Positions 4,834 through 20,860 of a stretch of DNA of 64,000 bases are shown in pieces; position 1 is the stretch's first letter; every line of letters starts with the position of its first letter. The notes under the pieces were generated by a model. That model was not told the DNA's origin, did not search any database, and was given only the letters and a program-made list of their open reading frames with translations. Location: NCBI RefSeq assembly GCF_054482595.1, contig NZ_CM137008.1; one strand, 5' to 3'. A program made the position numbers and the translations under genes.

Positions 4834-5202
4834 TTACTTTTTCGTTTCGGGCGTCGGATAAACAGCCATATAAACGTAGCCACAACTGCCGAGGGTGTCG
4901 GCTTCGCAGGTCAGCCTTTTTGCATACAGCGTGACGGTATGCTGATGGCGGGGATTCAGTTCACCGCTGGTGAGCATGAGTTCCAGTTGTTTCATCAGCA
5001 GCGGAAAGGCCTGGTCCAGATGGTACGCATCCGCGTCGCTGAACCGGCCTCTGATACCGGCGCGGTCTGCAAGGTAATGCAACCGGTTACCCTCCTGCAC
5101 CAGACGTGCCCCAAAACAGGGCGTCACGGTGCAGGGCAGTCCCCACCAGGTGCGGTCGTTATTGTCGTCGGGAAGCGTTGTCCCGGGGAGTGTGTCTGAC
5201 AC
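4834..5202 (-). CDS. cbeA: CbeA/YeeU-family antitoxin
   Basis: 122-aa ORF immediately upstream of the toxin; [50 protein letters not shown]... matches the YeeU/YfjZ/YafW family. Confidence 0.85.
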
Positions 5203-5281
5203 GATAAAATCCTCACAGAAAATTGGTTAAGAATGGTCCGGTGGTGGCGATAATTCTGCTCTTCTGAATGCCCTTCCAGAC

Positions 5282-5503
5282 TCAGTTCAGGGTGACGCTC
5301 ATCAGCCGGACATACGGACCAAAACTGTCCTTACGGCGTTCTGCAAACACAGCCAGCACACCGGGAATATCCTGTACTTCACGGCCGGTATATGTATCCG
5401 TGCTACCGTGCCAGCGGTATTTACCGGTACAGAACGGAAAAAGACGGGATGCAGGATGCTGACGGTGAATACGCATGGCTTCACCACGGGTGATGATTTT
5501 CAT
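5282..5503 (-). CDS. YeeT/YpjJ-like DUF987 protein
   Basis: 73 aa; MKIITRGEAMRIHRQHPASRLFPFCTGKYRWHGSTDTYTGREVQDIPGVLAVFAERR; conserved partner upstream of cbeA. Confidence 0.75.
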   Translation of the reverse strand: MKIITRGEAMRIHRQHPASRLFPFCTGKYRWHGSTDTYTGREVQDIPGVLAVFAERRKDSFGPYVRLMSVTLN

Positions 5504-5589
5504 GAGAATAGTCCTCCTGAATGTGAAAGTAAGAAACAGCTGAGAAAGAGAAACTGAAGTGATATGAAGGTGATTGTGACGGTGACGGG

Positions 5590-6066
5590 TTAAAGCAGAC
5601 CGTGTTCGGCAAAGGAGAATACCTGGCTGCCACCGACTATCAGATGGTCCGGCACCCGGATATCCACCAGGGCCAGCGCCTGTACCAGACGTTCAGTGAT
5701 AAGCCGGTCTGCCTTACTGGGGGTGACTTCACCGGACGGGTGATTGTGCGCCAGCACCACGGCAGCGGCATTGTGGTACAGGGCACGTTTAATCACCTCC
5801 CGGGGATGGACTTCTGTGCGGTTGATGGTGCCTGTGAAGAGGGTTTCACCCGCAATCAGCTGATTCTGGTTGTTCAGATACAGCACCCGGAACTCTTCCC
5901 GCTCCAGTCCTGCCATGTTCAGAATCAGCCATTCCCGTGCCGCATGCGTGGAGGTGAAGGCCACGCCGGGTTCATGAAGATGGCGGTCCAGGGTTTTCAG
6001 GGCCCGCTGAATGAGGCTGCGCTCGCCGGGCGTCATCTCTCCGGGCAGAAAGGAAAGCTGTTGCAT
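5590..6066 (-). CDS. RadC-like JAB-domain protein (YeeS/YkfG/YfjY family)
   Basis: 158 aa with the JAMM-type motif ...VVLAHNHPSGEVTPSKADRLITERL... Confidence 0.85.
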   Translation of the reverse strand: MQQLSFLPGEMTPGERSLIQRALKTLDRHLHEPGVAFTSTHAAREWLILNMAGLEREEFRVLYLNNQNQLIAGETLFTGTINRTEVHPREVIKRALYHNAAAVVLAHNHPSGEVTPSKADRLITERLVQALALVDIRVPDHLIVGGSQVFSFAEHGLL

Positions 6067-8629: not shown

Positions 8630-9310
8630 TCACAGGTTAAAGGTGTTGATAAGTTTATGGATGAAAGAGAAATGTGGCAGGGCGGAGATAAAACGCTCTT
8701 CAGCGACCAGACTGTGGATGTGGCCTCTCCGTTCAAACCGTTCTGATGTCAGGCTGACTGATTTGATATCTGCCAGAGGAAAGACCTGCAGTTTTCCCTT
8801 CTGTAACGCGATCAGATACCAGCTACCGCTGTAATAAATGAGCCGGCAGGGCTCCAGTGACGGATACCATCGCTCAGTCATCAGAGAGATGTGGATACAC
8901 TGTCTTATTGCCAGGATGAGTTGCGAGAAACACTCGGGGAACGTTGCAGTGATATCCGGCGCCGGTAGCCAGATAAGGCAGGGAGAGGGCTCCTGGTTGT
9001 CGGTAAGACAGGTTATCAGTCGTCCGTTCCGGAGCGGAAGTATCCGTGCGATCCCGGTATTCTGTATAAAAGAAAGCATTTCAGGGATCGCACCTGGGCT
9101 GCTCTGTCGTCTGAGGCTGTACCTGCCATTTCTGTACTCTAAATCCAGGTGAACCAGACGCTGATGAAAATCGCGCTGTAAAGTACGTTCTGTAACGCCA
9201 AATTCATCTGACAGTGTTTTTAGTGACAGAGATTCTCCGGCCATCAGTCGGCTGATAATGAGTGATAAGCGAACCGCCAGGCGATCATGCCGGGAACGAT
9301 TATCAGACAT
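8630..9310 (-). CDS. WYL-domain transcriptional regulator (YfjR-like, HTH N-terminus)
   Basis: 226 aa; N-terminal HTH (LKTLSDEFGVTERTLQRDF), C-terminal region with YYSGSWYLIA, consistent with a WYL domain. Confidence 0.7.
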   Translation of the reverse strand: MSDNRSRHDRLAVRLSLIISRLMAGESLSLKTLSDEFGVTERTLQRDFHQRLVHLDLEYRNGRYSLRRQSSPGAIPEMLSFIQNTGIARILPLRNGRLITCLTDNQEPSPCLIWLPAPDITATFPECFSQLILAIRQCIHISLMTERWYPSLEPCRLIYYSGSWYLIALQKGKLQVFPLADIKSVSLTSERFERRGHIHSLVAEERFISALPHFSFIHKLINTFNL

Positions 9311-9512
9311 AGATGTGCACTCCGTAAGAAAACATCTTTTATTTCATGATGTTATTATGCATCATGATGTTGAAAGGATGTGTCGCATCCGGATAATCAG
9401 GAATAAAATGCAGCAGAAAAAATATTCTTTTAATTATCTGATTTTTAAGCATGATTTCATAAAAAGAAGAATGCTCGTTAATCCAGCGACACATCCTGTC
9501 GGCGTGAGTGTG

Positions 9513-10397
9513 TCAGAACAGACGCTCCCACAGTGTGATCAGCAGGTGGATAATGCGGTCCCGGGCTTTACGCAGAAGCTGTAACATCCAGGCCGGAAAA
9601 CTGAAACGGGCAACGGCGACGTCAAAACTTTTCCCGATGGTTTCACCAAAAGTCTGTTGTGCGTGTTTCTGGGCCTGTTCAGAGCGGTTTTCTCCCCGGA
9701 TATGTGAATACACCGCGCTGGTTGCCTGTGGTGGCAGTGCGTGGATCATCAGCGACACAAACGCCGGAAGGTTCCAGCCGACAGGTGCAGCAACGGAGAG
9801 TACCGGAAATGATGAAGGGAACAGGGTTGCCACCCGGGCTGTCACCGTCGCCAGTGAGAGCGCCTGCTGACGGGACGGGCATTTTTCTGTGGCATTCCAT
9901 TCTTCAGCAGGAAACACGCGATCGGCATGGCTGAGAACAAACAGAAAACGCGAGGGATCTGCGCCTTCATTCAGTAAAAACTGATGCATGGTAATGTCGG
10001 CGGCATACGCGCGTTCATCTGCCCGCAGGATCCAGATAATCAAATCCACTTCCGGCAGTAACTGACGGTAAAGCGCCCGGTATTCCTGATCATGTTGCGG
10101 CGTCTCTCCAATGCCGGGCAGATCGACCAGCGTCATTCTGCGTTCACCGATCTGCAGGGTAAGACGATGAGCCTGGCGGGTGCAGCCGTTCAGGGGATGT
10201 GTGGCACAGATATGGGACTGAAAAATAGCATTACACAGGCTACTTTTGCCGGTGCCGGATTTACCCATAATGCCAATCACGGGTTCGTAATGAATAACGC
10301 TGTGGAGATGTTCAAGAATTTTCTGACGAATTTCTTCAGGAAGAAACGTCAGATATGATTTCACTTGTGCGGAGAGGGAAGAATGGCTGAATGACAT
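9513..10397 (-). CDS. GTPase of YfjP/YkfA family (50S-ribosome-binding GTPase-like)
   Basis: 294 aa with P-loop GIMGKSGTGKSS and G3 DLPGIGE. Confidence 0.8.
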   Translation of the reverse strand: MSFSHSSLSAQVKSYLTFLPEEIRQKILEHLHSVIHYEPVIGIMGKSGTGKSSLCNAIFQSHICATHPLNGCTRQAHRLTLQIGERRMTLVDLPGIGETPQHDQEYRALYRQLLPEVDLIIWILRADERAYAADITMHQFLLNEGADPSRFLFVLSHADRVFPAEEWNATEKCPSRQQALSLATVTARVATLFPSSFPVLSVAAPVGWNLPAFVSLMIHALPPQATSAVYSHIRGENRSEQAQKHAQQTFGETIGKSFDVAVARFSFPAWMLQLLRKARDRIIHLLITLWERLF

Positions 10398-10581
10398 ACC
10401 GGTATCCTGTTGATTTCACTGAACCGGATCACACTAATCCGGTTTATCATTCAGGTAATATGGACGTGAAAAATGATGGAATGTCTGAATTACGGATATT
10501 ATTGTTAAAGTGTAATGGAGTATGAAGTGAGTTTTTCAGAACGGGAACTAATGACATACTGCGGTTTCAGGAGATGAGAGG

Positions 10582-11712
10582 ATGACCGGACGTAAAAACA
10601 AATGCGTCAGAAAAAATTGTAACAATCAGGTTTTCTCAGTAAAAATGGCAGTGGAGAAAAGACTGTGCAGAAAACATTATGAGAGGTTTTGTGAGCTCAA
10701 AAAAAGAAGAGAGCAAAATCCTGTTCACAGATTAAATGAAGCATTGCCAAGAAAGATAAAAGGACCCAAAAGTAAGAAAAAATTAGTAAAAGAAAGAGAA
10801 ATCATTAACAGCAGGAAGAAACATAAACAGGAGCAGGGACCATCGCTGGTTGAACTTAATAAAAAAGTTCGTGAGATACTGAAAACTCCGGCATGGAGAA
10901 CGCTGGAAACGAGAATTCGAAGAAACGGTATCACATTTAAATCAAAAGCAGAGTTAGATGTACTTTCTGAACTTTATGCAATTTATTCATGGGTTTCATA
11001 TTGCAAACGGAGCGATAATTATTCTGTGTGGTTTTTGAATTGTCCGGATGTAAATATAAATCTTCATGTGTGCGAATGCAGGTCTTCTGAAAGCGATTGT
11101 TATCTACCATCCCGTTTTATTATTCTTCCAGCTCCATTAAGGCAAAAAGTAAAAAGAAAATACCCTGCTAATTCGTCTGGAGTGTCAGGATATAGTGATT
11201 CAAAAAGTCTTTATAAGACTGTTTTGTCTGTTTGTGGTGGGAAAAGAGAAACCGAATTGTTCTTTTATTCACTGCCAGTAAAGACTAATCATCATCCTTA
11301 CTGGATTAAAAGTGGTGTGGTTAAAAGATTTCCGCCTATTTTTGGCTTGTTGTTTTATGAACAGGAAAGGTTAACAGGAGGTGTTTTTCGTTATGTGTTG
11401 ATAAAGTTTTATAATGCTTTTAAGGAGAATTTGTTTTTTGTTGAGATTATCTCGTGCTGTTTTCTTGTTGAGTTTTTTCATGATATTGATTCATTTTTTA
11501 TAAATCAACGATTAAGTAAGTTGGAAATTTTTATAGATAAGTGGAGGGAGGGTAAAGAAATCTGGATAAAAGCATATCTACAACTGATACATAATGCATT
11601 GGGAATAACTGAAACAGAAAAACTCGTCAATCTATATAATTCATTTTTTACTGATAAAGTGGTTCTCTGGGATGAATCAGTAAAAAAAGTTAAGTGGATT
11701 TATGAGAAATAG
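10582..11712 (+). CDS. hypothetical protein, Cys-rich basic N-terminus, strongly AT-rich gene
   Basis: 376-aa ORF with GGA RBS-like purines upstream; N-terminal C-x5-C...C-x-K-H-x4-C cluster and K/R-rich stretch; no recognised domain; divergent from the GTPase gene. Confidence 0.5.
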   Translation: MTGRKNKCVRKNCNNQVFSVKMAVEKRLCRKHYERFCELKKRREQNPVHRLNEALPRKIKGPKSKKKLVKEREIINSRKKHKQEQGPSLVELNKKVREILKTPAWRTLETRIRRNGITFKSKAELDVLSELYAIYSWVSYCKRSDNYSVWFLNCPDVNINLHVCECRSSESDCYLPSRFIILPAPLRQKVKRKYPANSSGVSGYSDSKSLYKTVLSVCGGKRETELFFYSLPVKTNHHPYWIKSGVVKRFPPIFGLLFYEQERLTGGVFRYVLIKFYNAFKENLFFVEIISCCFLVEFFHDIDSFFINQRLSKLEIFIDKWREGKEIWIKAYLQLIHNALGITETEKLVNLYNSFFTDKVVLWDESVKKVKWIYEK

Positions 11713-12252
11713 CACCATTTAACTGAAAGCTACCATAACGTCTTTTTGATCACACGCATGATAATGCGTCTCATTTAAATTTCGTTTTTTGGGTCATGGA
11801 AATTTTCCGAACATCAGTGATAATGAGGGTTTTGTTGTTTTTGTTTCTGCAATGTTTGAGGGCTGTTCCTGGAGACGATTCGTTGCTTGTGAGCAAGTGG
11901 TGGTCCGCTTTACTGGACGAGTTTTGCATTTGTTGAGTGGTGAAATGGAAGTAAAAAGAGCCCCTTTCTGGCAATGACTGAAAAAGTCAGTAGCGTGTAA
12001 CAGTAAAAACTAACATAAAGTGATTATCGTATGATTATGACAATAACTTATAACTTTTATGAAAAGAACAACAGAAACTACGAAGCCATAACAGATTCCT
12101 GAGACCATGTTTTCTGAGGTAGAGAAAATAATTCAAGAGTAAACCAGTTTGTTTTTTGGTCAGTAAAGAACCATGCCTGATGTGAAAACGGGTAATCAAC
12201 ATTCAGTCTGCATGGATGTTTGGAAGAGTTGAGAATGTCGGTATGATACTAT

Positions 12253-12360
12253 ATACACGTATTTTTACTAAGCATTTCAGTAAGTGTTATACACGTATTT
12301 TTACTAAGCATTTCAGTAAGTGTTATACACGTATTTTCATAAACACTTCTACAAGTGTTT
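12253..12360. repeat. tandem direct repeats (2 perfect 36-bp units plus a degenerate third)
   Basis: ATACACGTATTTTTACTAAGCATTTCAGTAAGTGTT at 12253-12288 and 12289-12324, then a diverged copy beginning ATACACGTATTTTCATAAACACTT. Confidence 0.85.
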
Positions 12361-13228
12361 TCGTTAAGCATTGCTATACACATCCAGTTTAGTAAATCTT
12401 TACGTTAACTAAATCAGTTTAATGCTGCTGTAAAACCTTTCTGCTTCAGCAATCAATCTGCTATTCGATTTTACTGATGTTACGTTTAACCTTTCCTGAT
12501 ATTTCGAGTTTCGACGTTAGCATGAGAAAAGTATCTTTACGCTAAATCAACCCGAACTTTCCTGAAGTAATCTGACGTTCTTTTCGATGTGCTTACGACG
12601 ATTCTGTTAAACGACTTTCTGGATGTTTTGATAACAATCAGATTTAGGCATTAACGATTCCTGACGTTTTTCTTTTCCGTGTAAGGTCATTGTTTTCGTC
12701 ATGATGTGACTCTTCTTGCATTGCGAAAGTGTGATGAACGGTTTTGGTGTTTTGATTCAGATGAAGTTTACGTTATCGATGGTTAATCGTTTTTATGGTG
12801 CGTAGTGAAACGTAACGCTTTCAGGAAGGGAAAATCGATTCTGATGGGGATGATCGTGTAACGGCGTTATCTGTAAACAGGTTTTAAACATGTCATTCGC
12901 ATCCGTGATTAAGTTGTGTGATTAAGCTGTAGGTTTTGGCGTTGTTGTTGATTTGCATTACCAGGAAGCGTTCTGGTTGCGTTTCTGGTGTTTTGTTTGA
13001 ATGTTCTGTGGATCCTTTTCCCTTCTGACTTTTCTCGTTGTCCATGTCGTTTTTAAATCCATTCGCTGTTCTTGAGTGTTTTTACCCTGTGTGTAGGATT
13101 ATCTTTTTGTTCCGTTTCAATCACTCTTAATCAGAAAGTTGTAGCATTGCTCAATGCCGGATGCCGTAAAGTTTTACCGCGGTGATTAATGATGTGAAGT
13201 CAATCCAAATCAACGGAGATCTCTCATC

Positions 13229-13960
13229 ATGAATCAACCAATACACAATGCTTACTGGTTATCCCGTTTTGAAAGTATTCTCAACGGTGCCCTGGCGCAA
13301 CACCGTGCCGTCTCGTTAATCCGGGTGGATTTACGTTTCCCTGAGTATATGCCTGCCACCATCATGGATACCGATTTAGATTCAGCGGTGATTTCTCGTT
13401 TTTTTGCATCCCTGAAAGCAAAAATTCAGGCTTACCAGCGGAAAAAACGACGTGCCAACAAGCGTGTGCGTGCAACCACTCTGCGTTATTTCTGGTGTCG
13501 GGAGTTTGGCAAGGAAAAAGGCAGGAAACATTATCACGTGATATTACTGCTCAACAAAGATACCTGGTGCTCGCCAGGGGATTTCACCGTTCCTTCTTCG
13601 CTGGCGACGCTGATCCAACTGGCATGGTGCAGTGCTCTGCATCTTGAGCCCTGGCAGGGTAATGGACTGGTTCACTTTTCCAGGCGGACGCCTTTCCGTA
13701 AACCGACATCATCTGATGCTCGCCCTTCTTCCGATGATACGCCTGTGCCTGGTGGATGTTCTGATACCCGGAAGGATTCTGACAAAAAATCTGGTGGATC
13801 CGCTGTTCTCTGGGTCAAGCGTGGTGATGTGGAAGCGATGCAGAAAGCCATGGAGAGAGCCCGTTATCTCGTGAAGTATGAGACGAAGCAGCATGACGGT
13901 TCTGGTCAACGTAATTATGGTTGCAGTCGTGGGCTGGGGCGTCTACTGGATGGCAGGTGA
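13229..13960 (+). CDS. YagK/YfjJ-family protein (inovirus Gp2-like family of CP4 islands)
   Basis: 243 aa; MNQPIHNAYWLSRFESILNGAL...HYHVILLLNKD; paralogous to the ORF at 19172-19738. Confidence 0.7.
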   Translation: MNQPIHNAYWLSRFESILNGALAQHRAVSLIRVDLRFPEYMPATIMDTDLDSAVISRFFASLKAKIQAYQRKKRRANKRVRATTLRYFWCREFGKEKGRKHYHVILLLNKDTWCSPGDFTVPSSLATLIQLAWCSALHLEPWQGNGLVHFSRRTPFRKPTSSDARPSSDDTPVPGGCSDTRKDSDKKSGGSAVLWVKRGDVEAMQKAMERARYLVKYETKQHDGSGQRNYGCSRGLGRLLDGR

Positions 13961-14287
13961 ACCCTGTAAAACAGCATCCGATGCCTGAGTTTATGCCAAC
14001 GCCCTTAGCTCGCTTTCTGAAAAGTCGTCCTGAAGTAATGCAATGGATTGCCATCTACTTCCGTTCGTGACACATAAGTCGAAAAACCTTTGGTTGTTCT
14101 GGTTATTTGCATTTACTGCCATTCATAGAAATGAACAGATCGATTGGTAGGACTCAAATGTTATAGCGTCTCTCTTCTCATAGTCTGCTTTGTACCAGAC
14201 GCGGAATCCCCTAATGCTGGTGTACAGGTTCTGACTCATTTCCTCCCCCACTTTCATCCCGTTATACTGTGAAAAAAGGAGGTAGGC

Positions 14288-15166
14288 GTGAAACTGAAAA
14301 TGCAGGATTTGAGGCTGTTTAATATTGTGTTCGAGAGCGATCCTGGCTGGATACTGGATTTCTCTAACCGCACCTTGTCTGCTTTTTTCGATGAAGAATT
14401 GAACATTGATATTGATGATGAACGTTATCAGAAAGAGGGGACGTCAAAAGCCAAACGAGTTAGATGCTTGCTGAAACAGGTTGATCGTGAGACCGCTCTG
14501 CGGGTTCTTGGTGCGCTCTGGCAGTATAAAACGGAATCCATGCCTGAACAGGCTGAACAAAGCCGTAATGACTATCTTGCACTGATTTCCCGCTTAGAAA
14601 ACGCTGACACCGATGAAGCCAAAGGCGTTAAGCCTGTCCAGGCATGGCATGGTGTTGACTGGCATTCACTTATCGCTGAAATGAACGAGATGAAATCTCT
14701 GCCGCCACATCCACGTGGTTTTCGGTTTGAAGCCTGGCTTGCTGAACTGTTCAGTATCTTTAAGCTTGCTCCCCGTTCGTCTTTCCGAAATACAGGCGAA
14801 CAGATTGACGGAAGTTTCCGACTGAATGATGAATTTTACCTGATGGAGGCAAAGTGGCATCAGAAAAGAACGTCGGCTGCCGACCTCCATGTATTTGAAG
14901 GAAAGCTCAGTACCAAGGCAACCTGGACACGCGGTGTTTTTATCAGTTGGATGGGCTTTACGCCTGAAGGCCTGACGGCTTTTGGTAAAGGGAAGCGGGT
15001 TATCTGTGTCAGTGGTTATGATCTTTACCACTCACTGAATCATAGGATCCCTTTACCCGACCTTCTGGATGCTAAAACCCGGCACGCGGCTGAAACGGGA
15101 GAGCCCTATGCTGAGTTCGACCGACTATATGCACTGAAAGACAAACAGTTCGGCACGCTGAAATAA
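14288..15166 (+). CDS. Mrr-like (PD-(D/E)xK) restriction-endonuclease-domain protein with unrelated N-terminal domain
   Basis: GTG 14288 preceded by AGGAGG (alternative ATG 14300). C-terminal GEQIDGSF...[10 protein letters not shown]...[11 protein letters not shown] parallels the Mrr catalytic region (GDGGIDG...VQAKRW...RGVFITTSGFT) as I recall it. Confidence 0.6.
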
Positions 15167-16922: not shown

Positions 16923-17363
16923 ATGAGCAAGAAGAAGTTTTCTGTTGAGAATGAAGATCTCTCTACTGTTCGTACATCACTTCTTAATTCCAACCTTGTC
17001 CGGAAGTTGATCATGGAAATGTCTGATGAAGACTTCAATCAAGTTAAGGATAACCTTGAAAAGGCCATTGAGCAGCGTAATGAGTTGAAGGATTCTTTGG
17101 CAATTATCAAAAAGTACATGGATGACGCAGGTGTAACGGCGGAAGATGTGTATCGTGAATTTGGCAAAAAATTACAGACGGGCAGAAAAAACGATTCAGG
17201 AGAGTCTAATAAGTACAGGTATGAGTATAACGGTCAAATAATGTACTGGAGTGGACAAGGTCGTCGGCCTTCTGTTATTGCAGAAGCAATAAAAGCCGGA
17301 GGTTCTCTTGATGATTTTCTTATATCTCAGGGCACATCATCATCTTGTTCTGATTATGAGTGA
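16923..17363 (+). CDS. H-NS-family nucleoid-associated protein (xenogeneic-silencer paralog)
   Basis: 146 aa; C-terminal YRYEYNGQIMYWSGQGRRPSVIAEAIKAGGSLDDFLI matches the H-NS DNA-binding domain signature; coiled-coil N-terminus. Confidence 0.85.
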   Translation: MSKKKFSVENEDLSTVRTSLLNSNLVRKLIMEMSDEDFNQVKDNLEKAIEQRNELKDSLAIIKKYMDDAGVTAEDVYREFGKKLQTGRKNDSGESNKYRYEYNGQIMYWSGQGRRPSVIAEAIKAGGSLDDFLISQGTSSSCSDYE

Positions 17364-18139: not shown

Positions 18140-19171
18140 GTTGATGTCATTTCTGGTGTGAGAACCTTAAGGAAACAACATGTTGGGTGGAGCGGAAAAT
18201 CCAAATGGTGACCGTCTTATTATCGCTGGCGCTGACACCTGAGCGATCACCTTTAATATGGTAGCAATTACACTGAATTACTTACAGATTCGTTATAACG
18301 AACCTCTGTACATAATTATGAAACAGATTTGTATTTACATAAAACATGGATATTTTTAATTTAGGTTTATTACTATTATTATACTCACTCCCTTTTTGAT
18401 ATAATCTCTATTGTTATTTACTTCCTGTCTTTACTCACTCTCTGTTCCTGTTTTCAGTGAAATAATAATTTATTTTAATTTTATCCATCATGAGCTGTAT
18501 TTGCTTAACAATGATTGTTTGCCTGATATGTTTTAACTATTCTGGTGAACATCAATTCTCTGTCATCACTGATTAACTGAATGCTTACGCTTTGATAAGG
18601 TATCCATGATTCCGTCATGTTTAACAGCGCAGAATAAACAATGAAATTAACAGAGTGAATTCCTGATTATGTTTGTTTCGGGTTGTATTGTTTAAGATGC
18701 AGAGTAAAAATCATGCCAGTGGTATTTTTTACTCTGGTAATGTGTGCGGTTAACGTTCATGTCCTTAAGAACAGATTGGATGAGGGCGTATAAGTTTATT
18801 GCGTTGGCCTTGTTCACGTTTTTTTAGAACCACTGAGAGCAAGTTTGTAGTTTATGATTGATTGGTCGAAATATATTTCTTAACCTTCTGGTTGTGGGTT
18901 TTTATCGCGTGTTTTGCAGTATTTCGTGATGTTTATTGATTCTGTATTTTATTCGCTCCTCGTTTATCTCATCTCTTTAGCTAATACCATCAGATAATCC
19001 ATTTATTTCTGCACAACGCTACGTGTCGTTAATAACCGACGTATCCATTCTGTTACAGCATGCCTGATAAATACCGTCTGTAAGTTATTACCGTTTTAGA
19101 TCTGATTATGAGCGAAAGCATTAATTCGTTTACAGCACTTAAAACGTCATTAACTTTCAGGAGTCATCAGC

Positions 19172-19738
19172 ATGCCTAAATCTTACACACCAAACTGGTT
19201 TTTTACCGCTTTACTTGACAATCACATCAATCAAATGATGGCACGCTATTCCTGCCTGCGGGCCTTACGCATGGATTTCTTCTACAGGAAAGATACGCCT
19301 GATTTCTTACAACCTGATCATCGCTGGCTTGAATTGCAGTTGCGTATGCTGCTGGAGCAGGTGGAACAATTTGAAAATATCGTTGGCTTCTTCTGGGTGA
19401 TTGAATGGACGGCTGATCATGGTTTTCATGCGCATGCGGTTTTCTGGATCGATCGTCAGAGGGTTAAAAAAATATATCCCTTTGCGGAGCGGATTACGGA
19501 ATGCTGGCGGTCTATTACGCATAACAGTGGTTCGGCACACCGCTGTACATATCAGCCGCATTATACATACAACATCAACATTCCTGTGCGCCACAACGAT
19601 CCTGAAAGCATCGATAATATTCGCGGTGCCCTGCATTATCTGGCGAAAGAAGAACAAAAAGACGGGCTGTGTGCCTACGGCTGCAATGAAGTTCCTGAAC
19701 GTCCTGCTGCAGGGCGTCCTCGTAAGCCTCACTTCTGA
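19172..19738 (+). CDS. YagK/YfjJ-family protein (second paralog)
   Basis: 188 aa; MPKSYTPNWFFTALLDNHINQMMARYSCLRALRMDFFYRKD...HAHAVFWIDRQ; AT-rich upstream region 18200-19170. Confidence 0.7.
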   Translation: MPKSYTPNWFFTALLDNHINQMMARYSCLRALRMDFFYRKDTPDFLQPDHRWLELQLRMLLEQVEQFENIVGFFWVIEWTADHGFHAHAVFWIDRQRVKKIYPFAERITECWRSITHNSGSAHRCTYQPHYTYNINIPVRHNDPESIDNIRGALHYLAKEEQKDGLCAYGCNEVPERPAAGRPRKPHF

Positions 19739-20558: not shown

Positions 20559-20626
20559 AAGCTCAGTTCAGCAGATTCACCCGCATTTGCCCAACATTCA
20601 TAAATCTCACAAAGGACATTCTGACC

Positions 20627-20860
20627 ATGTTGACCACAACAAGCCACGACAGCGTATTGCTGCGTGCCGACGATCCCCTGATCGACATGAACTACATCAC
20701 CAGTTTCACCGGTATGACCGATAAATGGTTTTACAAGCTGATCAGTGAAGGTCATTTCCCTAAACCCATCAAACTGGGGCGTAGCAGCCGCTGGTACAAA
20801 AGTGAAGTGGAGCAGTGGATGCAGCAGCGAATTGAGGAATCACGAGGAGCAGCAGCATGA
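20627..20860 (+). CDS. AlpA-family phage/island transcriptional regulator (HTH)
   Basis: ...ITSFTGMTDKWFYKLISEGHFPKPIKLGRSSRWYKSEVEQWM fits the AlpA pattern; alternative start at ATG 20687. Confidence 0.75.
   Translation: MLTTTSHDSVLLRADDPLIDMNYITSFTGMTDKWFYKLISEGHFPKPIKLGRSSRWYKSEVEQWMQQRIEESRGAAA

Follow-up and report, generated by a model that had tools for sequence, protein, structure and literature searches.

A very probably inactive HNH-derived protein at a fixed position in CP4-57-like islands of Escherichia coli

The stretch of DNA analysed here, called the window throughout, comprises 64,000 nucleotides of contig NZ_CM137008.1 (NCBI RefSeq assembly GCF_054482595.1), and its positions 10582 to 11712 hold a gene for a protein of 376 amino acids (aa) that is identical to WP_047928958.1 and annotated as a "hypothetical protein". 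The identical locus is present in E. coli W5-6. With a guanine-plus-cytosine (GC) content of 0.337, and 0.286 at third codon positions (GC3), the gene is far more AT-rich than the whole window (0.476) or its neighbours, a GTPase gene of the YfjP family (0.530) and a Gp2/YfjJ gene (0.505). Its product is strongly basic, having an isoelectric point (pI) of 9.73, 72 lysines and arginines against 39 aspartates and glutamates, and 12 cysteines (3.2%). An open frame of 376 codons is not a matter of chance, since at the composition of the gene about 7% of random codons would be stops and we estimate the probability of such a frame at roughly 4e-13. The first-pass annotation, which had described an AT-rich gene for a highly basic 376-aa protein in a slot beside a YfjP-like GTPase gene, is borne out by the open reading frame (ORF), by these compositions and charge counts, and by the divergent orientation of the two genes. 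The features on which the argument draws are the following; the allele types A, B and C of the slot are described below.

9513..10397, - strand: YfjP-family GTPase gene, the divergent neighbour and first gene of a leftward operon (ORF list, library matches)
10398..10470, no strand: intergenic segment common to all E. coli slot types, a putative promoter (sequence comparison)
10471..10581, + strand: allele-specific leader, with AGGAG 8 nucleotides before the ATG (sequence comparison of slot types)
10582..11712, + strand: coding sequence of the 376-aa protein, ATG start, a type-A allele of its family
10603..10692, + strand: zinc-finger-like cluster C8, C13, C29, H32 and C37 (aa 8-37; clade conservation, model)
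10747..10941, + strand: linker rich in lysine and arginine (aa 56-120; 22 K/R, 6 D/E, pI 11.4; composition, model)
11062..11160, + strand: predicted degenerate HNH beta-beta-alpha element (aa 161-193; model, hhalign)
11209..11709, + strand: predicted C-terminal helical domain and terminal beta-hairpin (model, cross-clade conservation)
11713..12122, no strand: allele-specific non-coding tail that travels with type-A alleles (sequence comparison)
12123..13228, no strand: non-coding stretch of about 1.1 kb that precedes the Gp2/YfjJ gene, common to about 1,880 E. coli genomes with any slot type
13229..13960, + strand: YagK/YfjJ gene ("inovirus Gp2", REP_ORF2-G2P) of HUH type, the downstream neighbour (library matches)

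The gene is not the orphan that it was first taken for. Word-indexed and exhaustive profile searches of 1.84 billion representatives yielded a family of 38 clusters at 50% identity, found in CP4-57-like islands of Enterobacterales, and its named members all belong to this order (E. coli, Klebsiella, Atlantibacter, Kluyvera, Citrobacter, Enterobacter, Providencia and Buttiauxella). None of them carries a name or a precomputed Pfam domain, and neither the window protein nor its relatives have a full-length match in Pfam, NCBIfam or PADLOC. The earlier failure to recognise a motif agrees with the searches made with the window protein alone, which gave no usable match in Pfam, NCBIfam, PADLOC, PHROGs or the PDB sequences, and no characterised housekeeping or phage structural protein is among its homologues. 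A word-indexed search with a mixed alignment returned close relatives only, a scan of IMG/VR with the alignment of the window clade returned no match, and a literature search by protein accession and island gene names found no account of the family. The family is unnamed, unmodelled by the profile libraries and specific to islands, and it is newly delineated here.

The origin of the protein is revealed by a sister clade. In a neighbour-joining tree of these very divergent sequences, 33 of the 55 form a clade with bootstrap 99 that keeps an intact HNH motif, L-E-x-[CS]-H-x-[YF]-P-x-x-x-G-G-x-N-x3-N-x2-I-x-P-x2-[IF]-N, whose H, P, G, G, N, N, P and N are invariant in 22 domain sequences of 25-43% overall identity. 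When a profile of this domain only was compared with 177,635 PDB sequences, six matches at E<=10 were returned, in register on the catalytic motif (4h9d, McrA 6ghc, IscB 9k30, 8zq9/8w2z and Cas9 8d2k); each is weak when taken singly (E 0.35-2.5), and their HNH identity is not due to chance because six out of six, among so many sequences, are HNH nucleases. The full-length profile of the clade gave noise only against the PDB (MRPL18). Pfam HNH_4 is matched by 8/22 of the domain sequences (best 7e-4) and HNH_5 by 7/22, below the curated thresholds, and phrog_1271, an "HNH endonuclease", is matched by 8/11 full-length members (best 2e-6), the match of the first of them spanning the zinc-finger region at residues 4-73. 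Three members of this clade, P0088, P0103 and P0110, each depart from the motif by one substitution in its GG/N part (KEGAN, GGASAAEN and ACGAN), so that the motif may be eroding repeatedly.

The window clade and the HNH clade are collinear over their full length (hhalign probability 99.85%, E 1.1e-30, 354 columns), and independently built hidden Markov models (HMMs) of the two clades find each other reciprocally (E 3e-18; 1e-12 to 5e-23). In this alignment, where the column confidence of hhalign peaks in the stretch from L175 to R187, the invariant histidine of the motif is replaced by E165 in the window protein and the three invariant asparagines by L175, R178 and R187. No conserved histidine or asparagine lies nearby in the window clade, H162 being a glutamine in Klebsiella and in P0004, and the HNH motif is also missing in types B and C. 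The window protein itself matches no HNH model or structure in Pfam, PHROG or PDB, and its tie to HNH nucleases runs only through the sister clade. Taken together, we hold with high confidence that the protein is derived from an HNH nuclease and is unable to work as one.

AlphaFold, given the alignment of 55 sequences, returned a model with a predicted local distance difference test (pLDDT) score of 83.5 and a predicted template modelling (pTM) score of 0.71; an alignment of 10 sequences had given an unusable pLDDT of 45. The best-conserved part of the window clade is the N-terminal cluster, C8-x4-C13-x15-C29-x2-H32-x4-C37, whose first spacing the first-pass annotation had miscounted as C-x5-C. 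Within the clade C8, C29, H32 and C37 never vary and the conservation of C13 is at least 90%, the spacing C-x4-C-x15-C-x2-H is common to types A and B and to the HNH clade, and these residues are predicted zinc ligands in a compact finger at about residues 7-55 (pLDDT about 95). The model continues with a stretch predicted to be disordered (residues 58-84, within the basic linker) and a helical segment (residues 89-152), and it places two strands (161-165 and 179-183) and a helix (184-193) at precisely the positions that align with the HNH motif of the sister clade. Beyond these lie a helical domain at residues 210-353 and a beta-hairpin at 361-372. The columns conserved family-wide are P183 in the beta-beta-alpha element and P252, L256, E260, R263, E288, Y352 and N353 in the C-terminal domain; as they fall mostly in the latter, the function shared by the family probably resides there. 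As a separate observation, the degenerate HNH loop of the E. coli type-A alleles only reads H162-x-C164-x-C166...C173 (aa 162-173; 11065-11100 in the window), which could be a new small metal site; the loop is not kept in Klebsiella or P0004.

The closest known systems are the phage and prophage HNH endonucleases with Cys/His fingers (PHROG 1271, 8660 and 15471; HNH_4, PF13395, and HNH_5, PF14279; solved examples are 4h9d and McrA 6ghc). The sister clade shares with them H-x2-P-x3-GG-x-N-x3-N...N in register as well as the finger region that matches phrog_1271, and the window protein keeps the predicted beta-beta-alpha element. The window protein departs from these enzymes in that E, L, R and R occupy the four catalytic or structural positions, that CxxC pairs around the HNH helix are missing, and that about 170 aa at the C-terminus form a helical domain without a structural match.

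The distribution of the gene and the way it evolves speak against a decaying remnant. It is present in 462 of 5426 complete E. coli genomes at 515 places, all of them chromosomal, and at least 80% of the gene is found at 95-100% identity in 458 of the 462 matching genomes. Every sampled row is annotated as an intact hypothetical protein, CFT073 and SMS-3-5 included, and one copy is split by the insertion sequence (IS) element IS1. The exact protein occurs on at least 999 contigs, and its cluster at 90% identity has 3400 members. In comparisons with the alleles of CFT073, O111 and the 80%-identical P0002, the ratio of nonsynonymous to synonymous divergence (dN/dS, Nei-Gojobori) is 0.20-0.33 at dS of up to 0.37, with 0.15-0.27 for the neighbouring GTPase gene for comparison, and the ORF is therefore a coding sequence under selection.

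The slot occupied by this gene is polymorphic in a peculiar way. Its left flank (10250-10470) occurs at 2502 places in 1869/5426 complete E. coli genomes, and the window-type allele fills 515 of these places. Nine further junctions, of roughly 2,500, were inspected, and in all nine the conserved left flank is followed directly by a family gene of unchanged orientation, with no empty site among them. Two carry type A (376 aa; L018 and L012, one of which is the P0002 locus), four carry type B (407 aa; L004, L016, L017 and L019) and three carry type C (310-316 aa; L005, L014 and L015). Type B is collinear with the window protein, from the same N-terminal cluster to the same C-terminal "...YNS.F...W" ending; the relationship of type C is weaker, with an hhalign probability of 38% and a whole-library E of about 4e-4 for the relatives P0052 and P0053. 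Between types the slot proteins are 23-29% identical, as compared with 94-98% for the GTPase and 84-100% for Gp2/YfjJ; in L018 (type A) and L019 (type B) the respective values are 27%, 95% and 100%. The leader, the gene and the tail (about 10471-12122) are swapped as a block between near-identical flanks, the allele-specific DNA beginning just after the conserved GGTAATATGGRCGTGAAAAA (about 10470) and stopping at about 12122. Exchange of divergent homologous alleles as a block is likewise known, by analogy, from lambdoid immunity regions and plasmid Rep/iteron cassettes; unlike in those systems, no cognate cis site was found here, the palindrome described below being invariant and the tail unconstrained. 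The tail diverges about as fast as third codon positions and shows no sign of constraint. A constrained cis element or small ORF within its 410 bp was considered and rejected, given this synonymous-like divergence and the indels that break a 62-aa ORF. In a side observation, type C is in every case accompanied by an extra convergent gene of 262-269 aa without a Pfam match (5201-5989 on the - strand of L014, 5184-5993 on the - strand of L015), which may be a partner that supplies a missing function.

The slot is also a fixed one. In several genera the family gene always lies between the alpA/int side of the island and the operon that starts with the GTPase and runs leftward through a WYL regulator, DUF905, DUF932, ArdB, RadC, DUF987 and CbeA/CbtA. 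This position is seen for E. coli types A, B and C, in Klebsiella and in HNH-clade loci from metagenomes and IMG/VR, and it is conserved across genera at 31% protein identity. Recognisable cargo (a restriction endonuclease, Dnd) lies beyond the Gp2/YfjJ gene. The idea of a variable cargo slot, which came with the first-pass annotation, does fit the K-12 CP4-57 island, which is of the same kind and has the same flanking gene families and whose yfjJ-yfjP interval, probably the model behind that idea, holds abpAB, yfjM and rnlAB, all unrelated to the family; it fails in the present island lineage, in which a homologue stands at 9/9 junctions inspected.

A further regularity links the loss of the HNH motif to the neighbourhood of the gene. 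In all nine loci with an intact HNH motif (L006, L009-L011 and L022-L026) the family gene follows alpA on the same strand at a distance of 24-260 bp, in the order int, yfjH-like gene, alpA, family gene and then GTPase, WYL regulator and DUF932...CbtA, and a gene of the YagK/YfjJ/G2P type was found in none of the nine within the available flanking DNA. By contrast, all 16 HNH-less loci with enough downstream DNA, namely E. coli types A, B and C and Klebsiella, have such a gene on the same strand 0.9-2.7 kb downstream. The YagK/YfjJ HUH proteins are not homologous to the 376-aa family; they belong to the same island module next to alpA, and a distribution complementary to that of the HNH-intact members is what one would expect if either protein supplied a DNA-nicking step, as the 25 loci suggest. 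The core of such elements is described as an integrase, an excisionase/AlpA and an HUH or Gp2-like protein (PMC12458937, section 11; PMC12595487), accompanied by a "moron" module (RadC, ArdB, CbtA/CbeA) and by defence cargo, the whole possibly moved by phages (PMC12458937; PMC12595487). Neither paper mentions the 376-aa family.

We favour, with a probability of roughly 0.4, the reading that the gene encodes a nuclease-dead DNA-binding factor of the island backbone, which would work in the alpA/Rep module on DNA of the island itself. The gene would be the descendant of an HNH endonuclease and a component of the backbone as opposed to cargo, its product combining a putative CCCH zinc finger, a disordered basic linker, a dead beta-beta-alpha core and a helical C-terminal domain. 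Such a protein may bind zinc and could bind but not cut nucleic acid, with island DNA as the likeliest target, and may thereby serve the alpA/Rep module in regulation, replication or mobilisation; strand cleavage, possible in the HNH-intact relatives, would here be supplied by the adjacent YagK/YfjJ protein, which is HUH-type and G2P-like. We prefer this reading because it fits how the protein is built, the selection on the gene, its fixed position and the HNH/HUH complementarity. Homology, catalytic loss, purifying selection, fixed position, allele swapping and the complementarity are the established points from which it sets out, and a regulatory or DNA-binding role is plausible from sequence and predicted structure.

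Several results weigh against it. Type C has no zinc finger, the predicted model has no whole-chain fold match, so that no particular function is backed by a structural analogue, and in K-12 CP4-57 no ORF matches the family HMMs, which means that some islands of this kind can do without the family. Co-evolution of the slot allele with the alleles of Gp2 or of the GTPase was considered and rejected: the slot types assort independently of both neighbours, and for this reason the extreme divergence at the slot is not explained by co-evolution with the HUH protein or the GTPase. Nor does the palindrome at 10422-10444 vary with the slot allele, and no cognate cis site was found in the allele-specific tail. 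Finally, the complementarity may rest on one or a few evolutionary events, the tree having four clades in which the monophyly of types A and B has 38% support (neighbour-joining).

An elaboration of the favoured reading, which we consider rather improbable, would make the family a polymorphic specificity module of phage-mobilised islands, in which the HNH chemistry was handed over to the HUH protein and a dead recognition subunit was left behind. HNH-active members would then nick DNA for island replication or packaging, or in an attack on a helper phage; the HUH (Gp2-like) protein would be a new acquisition of the E. coli and Klebsiella islands, and different phages would keep A, B and C divergent. 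If true, this would amount to a non-orthologous swap of the initiator nuclease inside one family of elements.

The strongest competing explanation, unlikely in our judgement, is that the protein faces phages, either as a single-gene defence or sensor, possibly together with the GTPase, or by interfering with or hijacking a helper phage, the alleles A, B and C being kept apart by an arms race. It accounts better than the backbone reading for the allele polymorphism, that is, for alleles 23-29% identical that are swapped between near-identical flanks, and it is in keeping with the AT-rich DNA, the nuclease ancestry and surroundings rich in defence genes (Hachiman, a restriction endonuclease and, in related strains, Dnd/Dpt). 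The equivalent K-12 interval holds AbpAB and RnlAB, the islands have been proposed to be mobilised by phages (PMC12458937, PMC12595487), and five members of the HNH clade lie on IMG/VR contigs. Those contigs, however, are islands of the same kind and not phages. The window protein matches none of the families of PADLOC-DB 2.0 at E<=10, a collection whose coverage ends with the systems described by 2023, and among 11 members of the HNH clade there is a single marginal match (PD-Lambda-1, E 0.012). The protein has lost its catalytic residues and shows no sign of another effector domain, the position in the backbone is fixed and shows none of the presence and absence typical of cargo, and the GTPase does not co-vary with the slot type. 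The single-gene defence factor anticipated by the first-pass annotation thus finds no support, in that PADLOC gives no match and the residues of the ancestral nuclease are lost.

Quite improbable, too, is a protein that acts solely as a local transcription factor, a zinc-finger regulator of the GTPase...CbtA operon, of its own transcript or of both, and is involved in neither replication nor transfer. Inactive nuclease folds often take on a new use as DNA-binding modules, the N-terminal half of the protein is basic and has a putative metal-binding cluster, and the gene diverges from the operon across a 184-bp intergenic region that contains a perfect 8-bp inverted repeat, AACCGGAT-N7-ATCCGGTT, at 10422-10444. 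This palindrome, which is identical beside alleles of type A, B and C, could be an operator or a hairpin in the 5' untranslated region of the GTPase operon. Farther on, at 10456-10461, is a TAATAT that is kept in Klebsiella too; since a consensus promoter scan upstream of the 376-aa gene gave no site on the + strand, its promoter is inferred from conservation only. What speaks against the local regulator is that the palindrome and the GTPase-proximal intergenic segment stay unchanged across slot proteins of 23-29% identity; with the segment the same for all alleles, an allele-specific operator there is unlikely. Moreover, the operon already has a WYL/HTH (helix-turn-helix) regulator, and in the HNH clade the family gene is co-directional with the operon and not divergent from it.

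Very improbable, lastly, is the relic of a selfish free-standing homing endonuclease that invaded a module junction, became inactive and is decaying without a function. In its favour are an HNH ancestry with a lost active site, an insert that is AT-rich and sharply set off from the conserved flanks on either side, and nuclease genes that are reported at phage recombination boundaries (PMC10448857). Against it stand the dN/dS of 0.20-0.33 over dS of up to 0.37, the frame intact in about 458/462 genomes, the constant length of 376 aa, the position kept across genera at 31% identity, the want of an empty site in the nine junctions inspected and C-terminal residues conserved in all clades.

The HNH superfamily and its inactive derivatives are already well known; what is added here is an island-specific family without a profile model, inactive in E. 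coli and with three allele types that are exchanged between conserved flanks, together with the complementary occurrence of HNH-intact members and the HUH gene. Roughly one in three complete E. coli genomes has a CP4-57-like island (1,869/5,426 have the junction). These islands carry defence, virulence and metabolic cargo, and their replication and movement are poorly understood. An unnamed gene of their backbone gains an evolutionary identity, that of an HNH-derived pseudo-nuclease with a putative zinc finger, and predictions follow as to the protein that nicks island DNA and the target recognised by the inactive version. The gene drops from the list of likely stand-alone defence genes, though it may yet play such a role.

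The surroundings of the gene offer some minor observations. In the conserved non-coding DNA upstream of Gp2/YfjJ there is a perfect 36-bp tandem repeat, TATACACGTATTTTTACTAAGCATTTCAGTAAGTGT, in 2.4 copies at 12252-12337, with a further degenerate copy at 12348-12383. The corresponding non-coding stretch of W5-6 is 36 bp shorter (1480 as against 1516 bp), which is one repeat unit. These repeats look iteron-like and could mark an origin. A search of Rfam over 9000-14500 found no RNA family; a 50-aa ORF lies at 12893-13045 on the - strand of the conserved region, and in CFT073, CH436 and the P0002 locus the annotation of the equivalent stretch includes short ORFs (52-59 aa) on the minus strand.

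The Gp2/YfjJ gene is followed downstream by a restriction endonuclease gene, IS remnants, a gene of the H-NS family, a second Gp2-type gene and an AlpA-like gene (features at 14288-15166, 17013-17363, about 19154-19738 and about 20625-20860), an arrangement that points to what is left of more than one island, in tandem or nested. W5-6, whose island ends at an integrase adjoining tRNA-Leu, differs from the window outside roughly 3.6-21 kb. Between the AlpA-like gene and dndB, which starts at 59725, the window has about 37 kb more than W5-6 (regions 20900-45800 and 59725-60810), and among the additions are an autotransporter, a malic enzyme, dcuC and IS66 elements.

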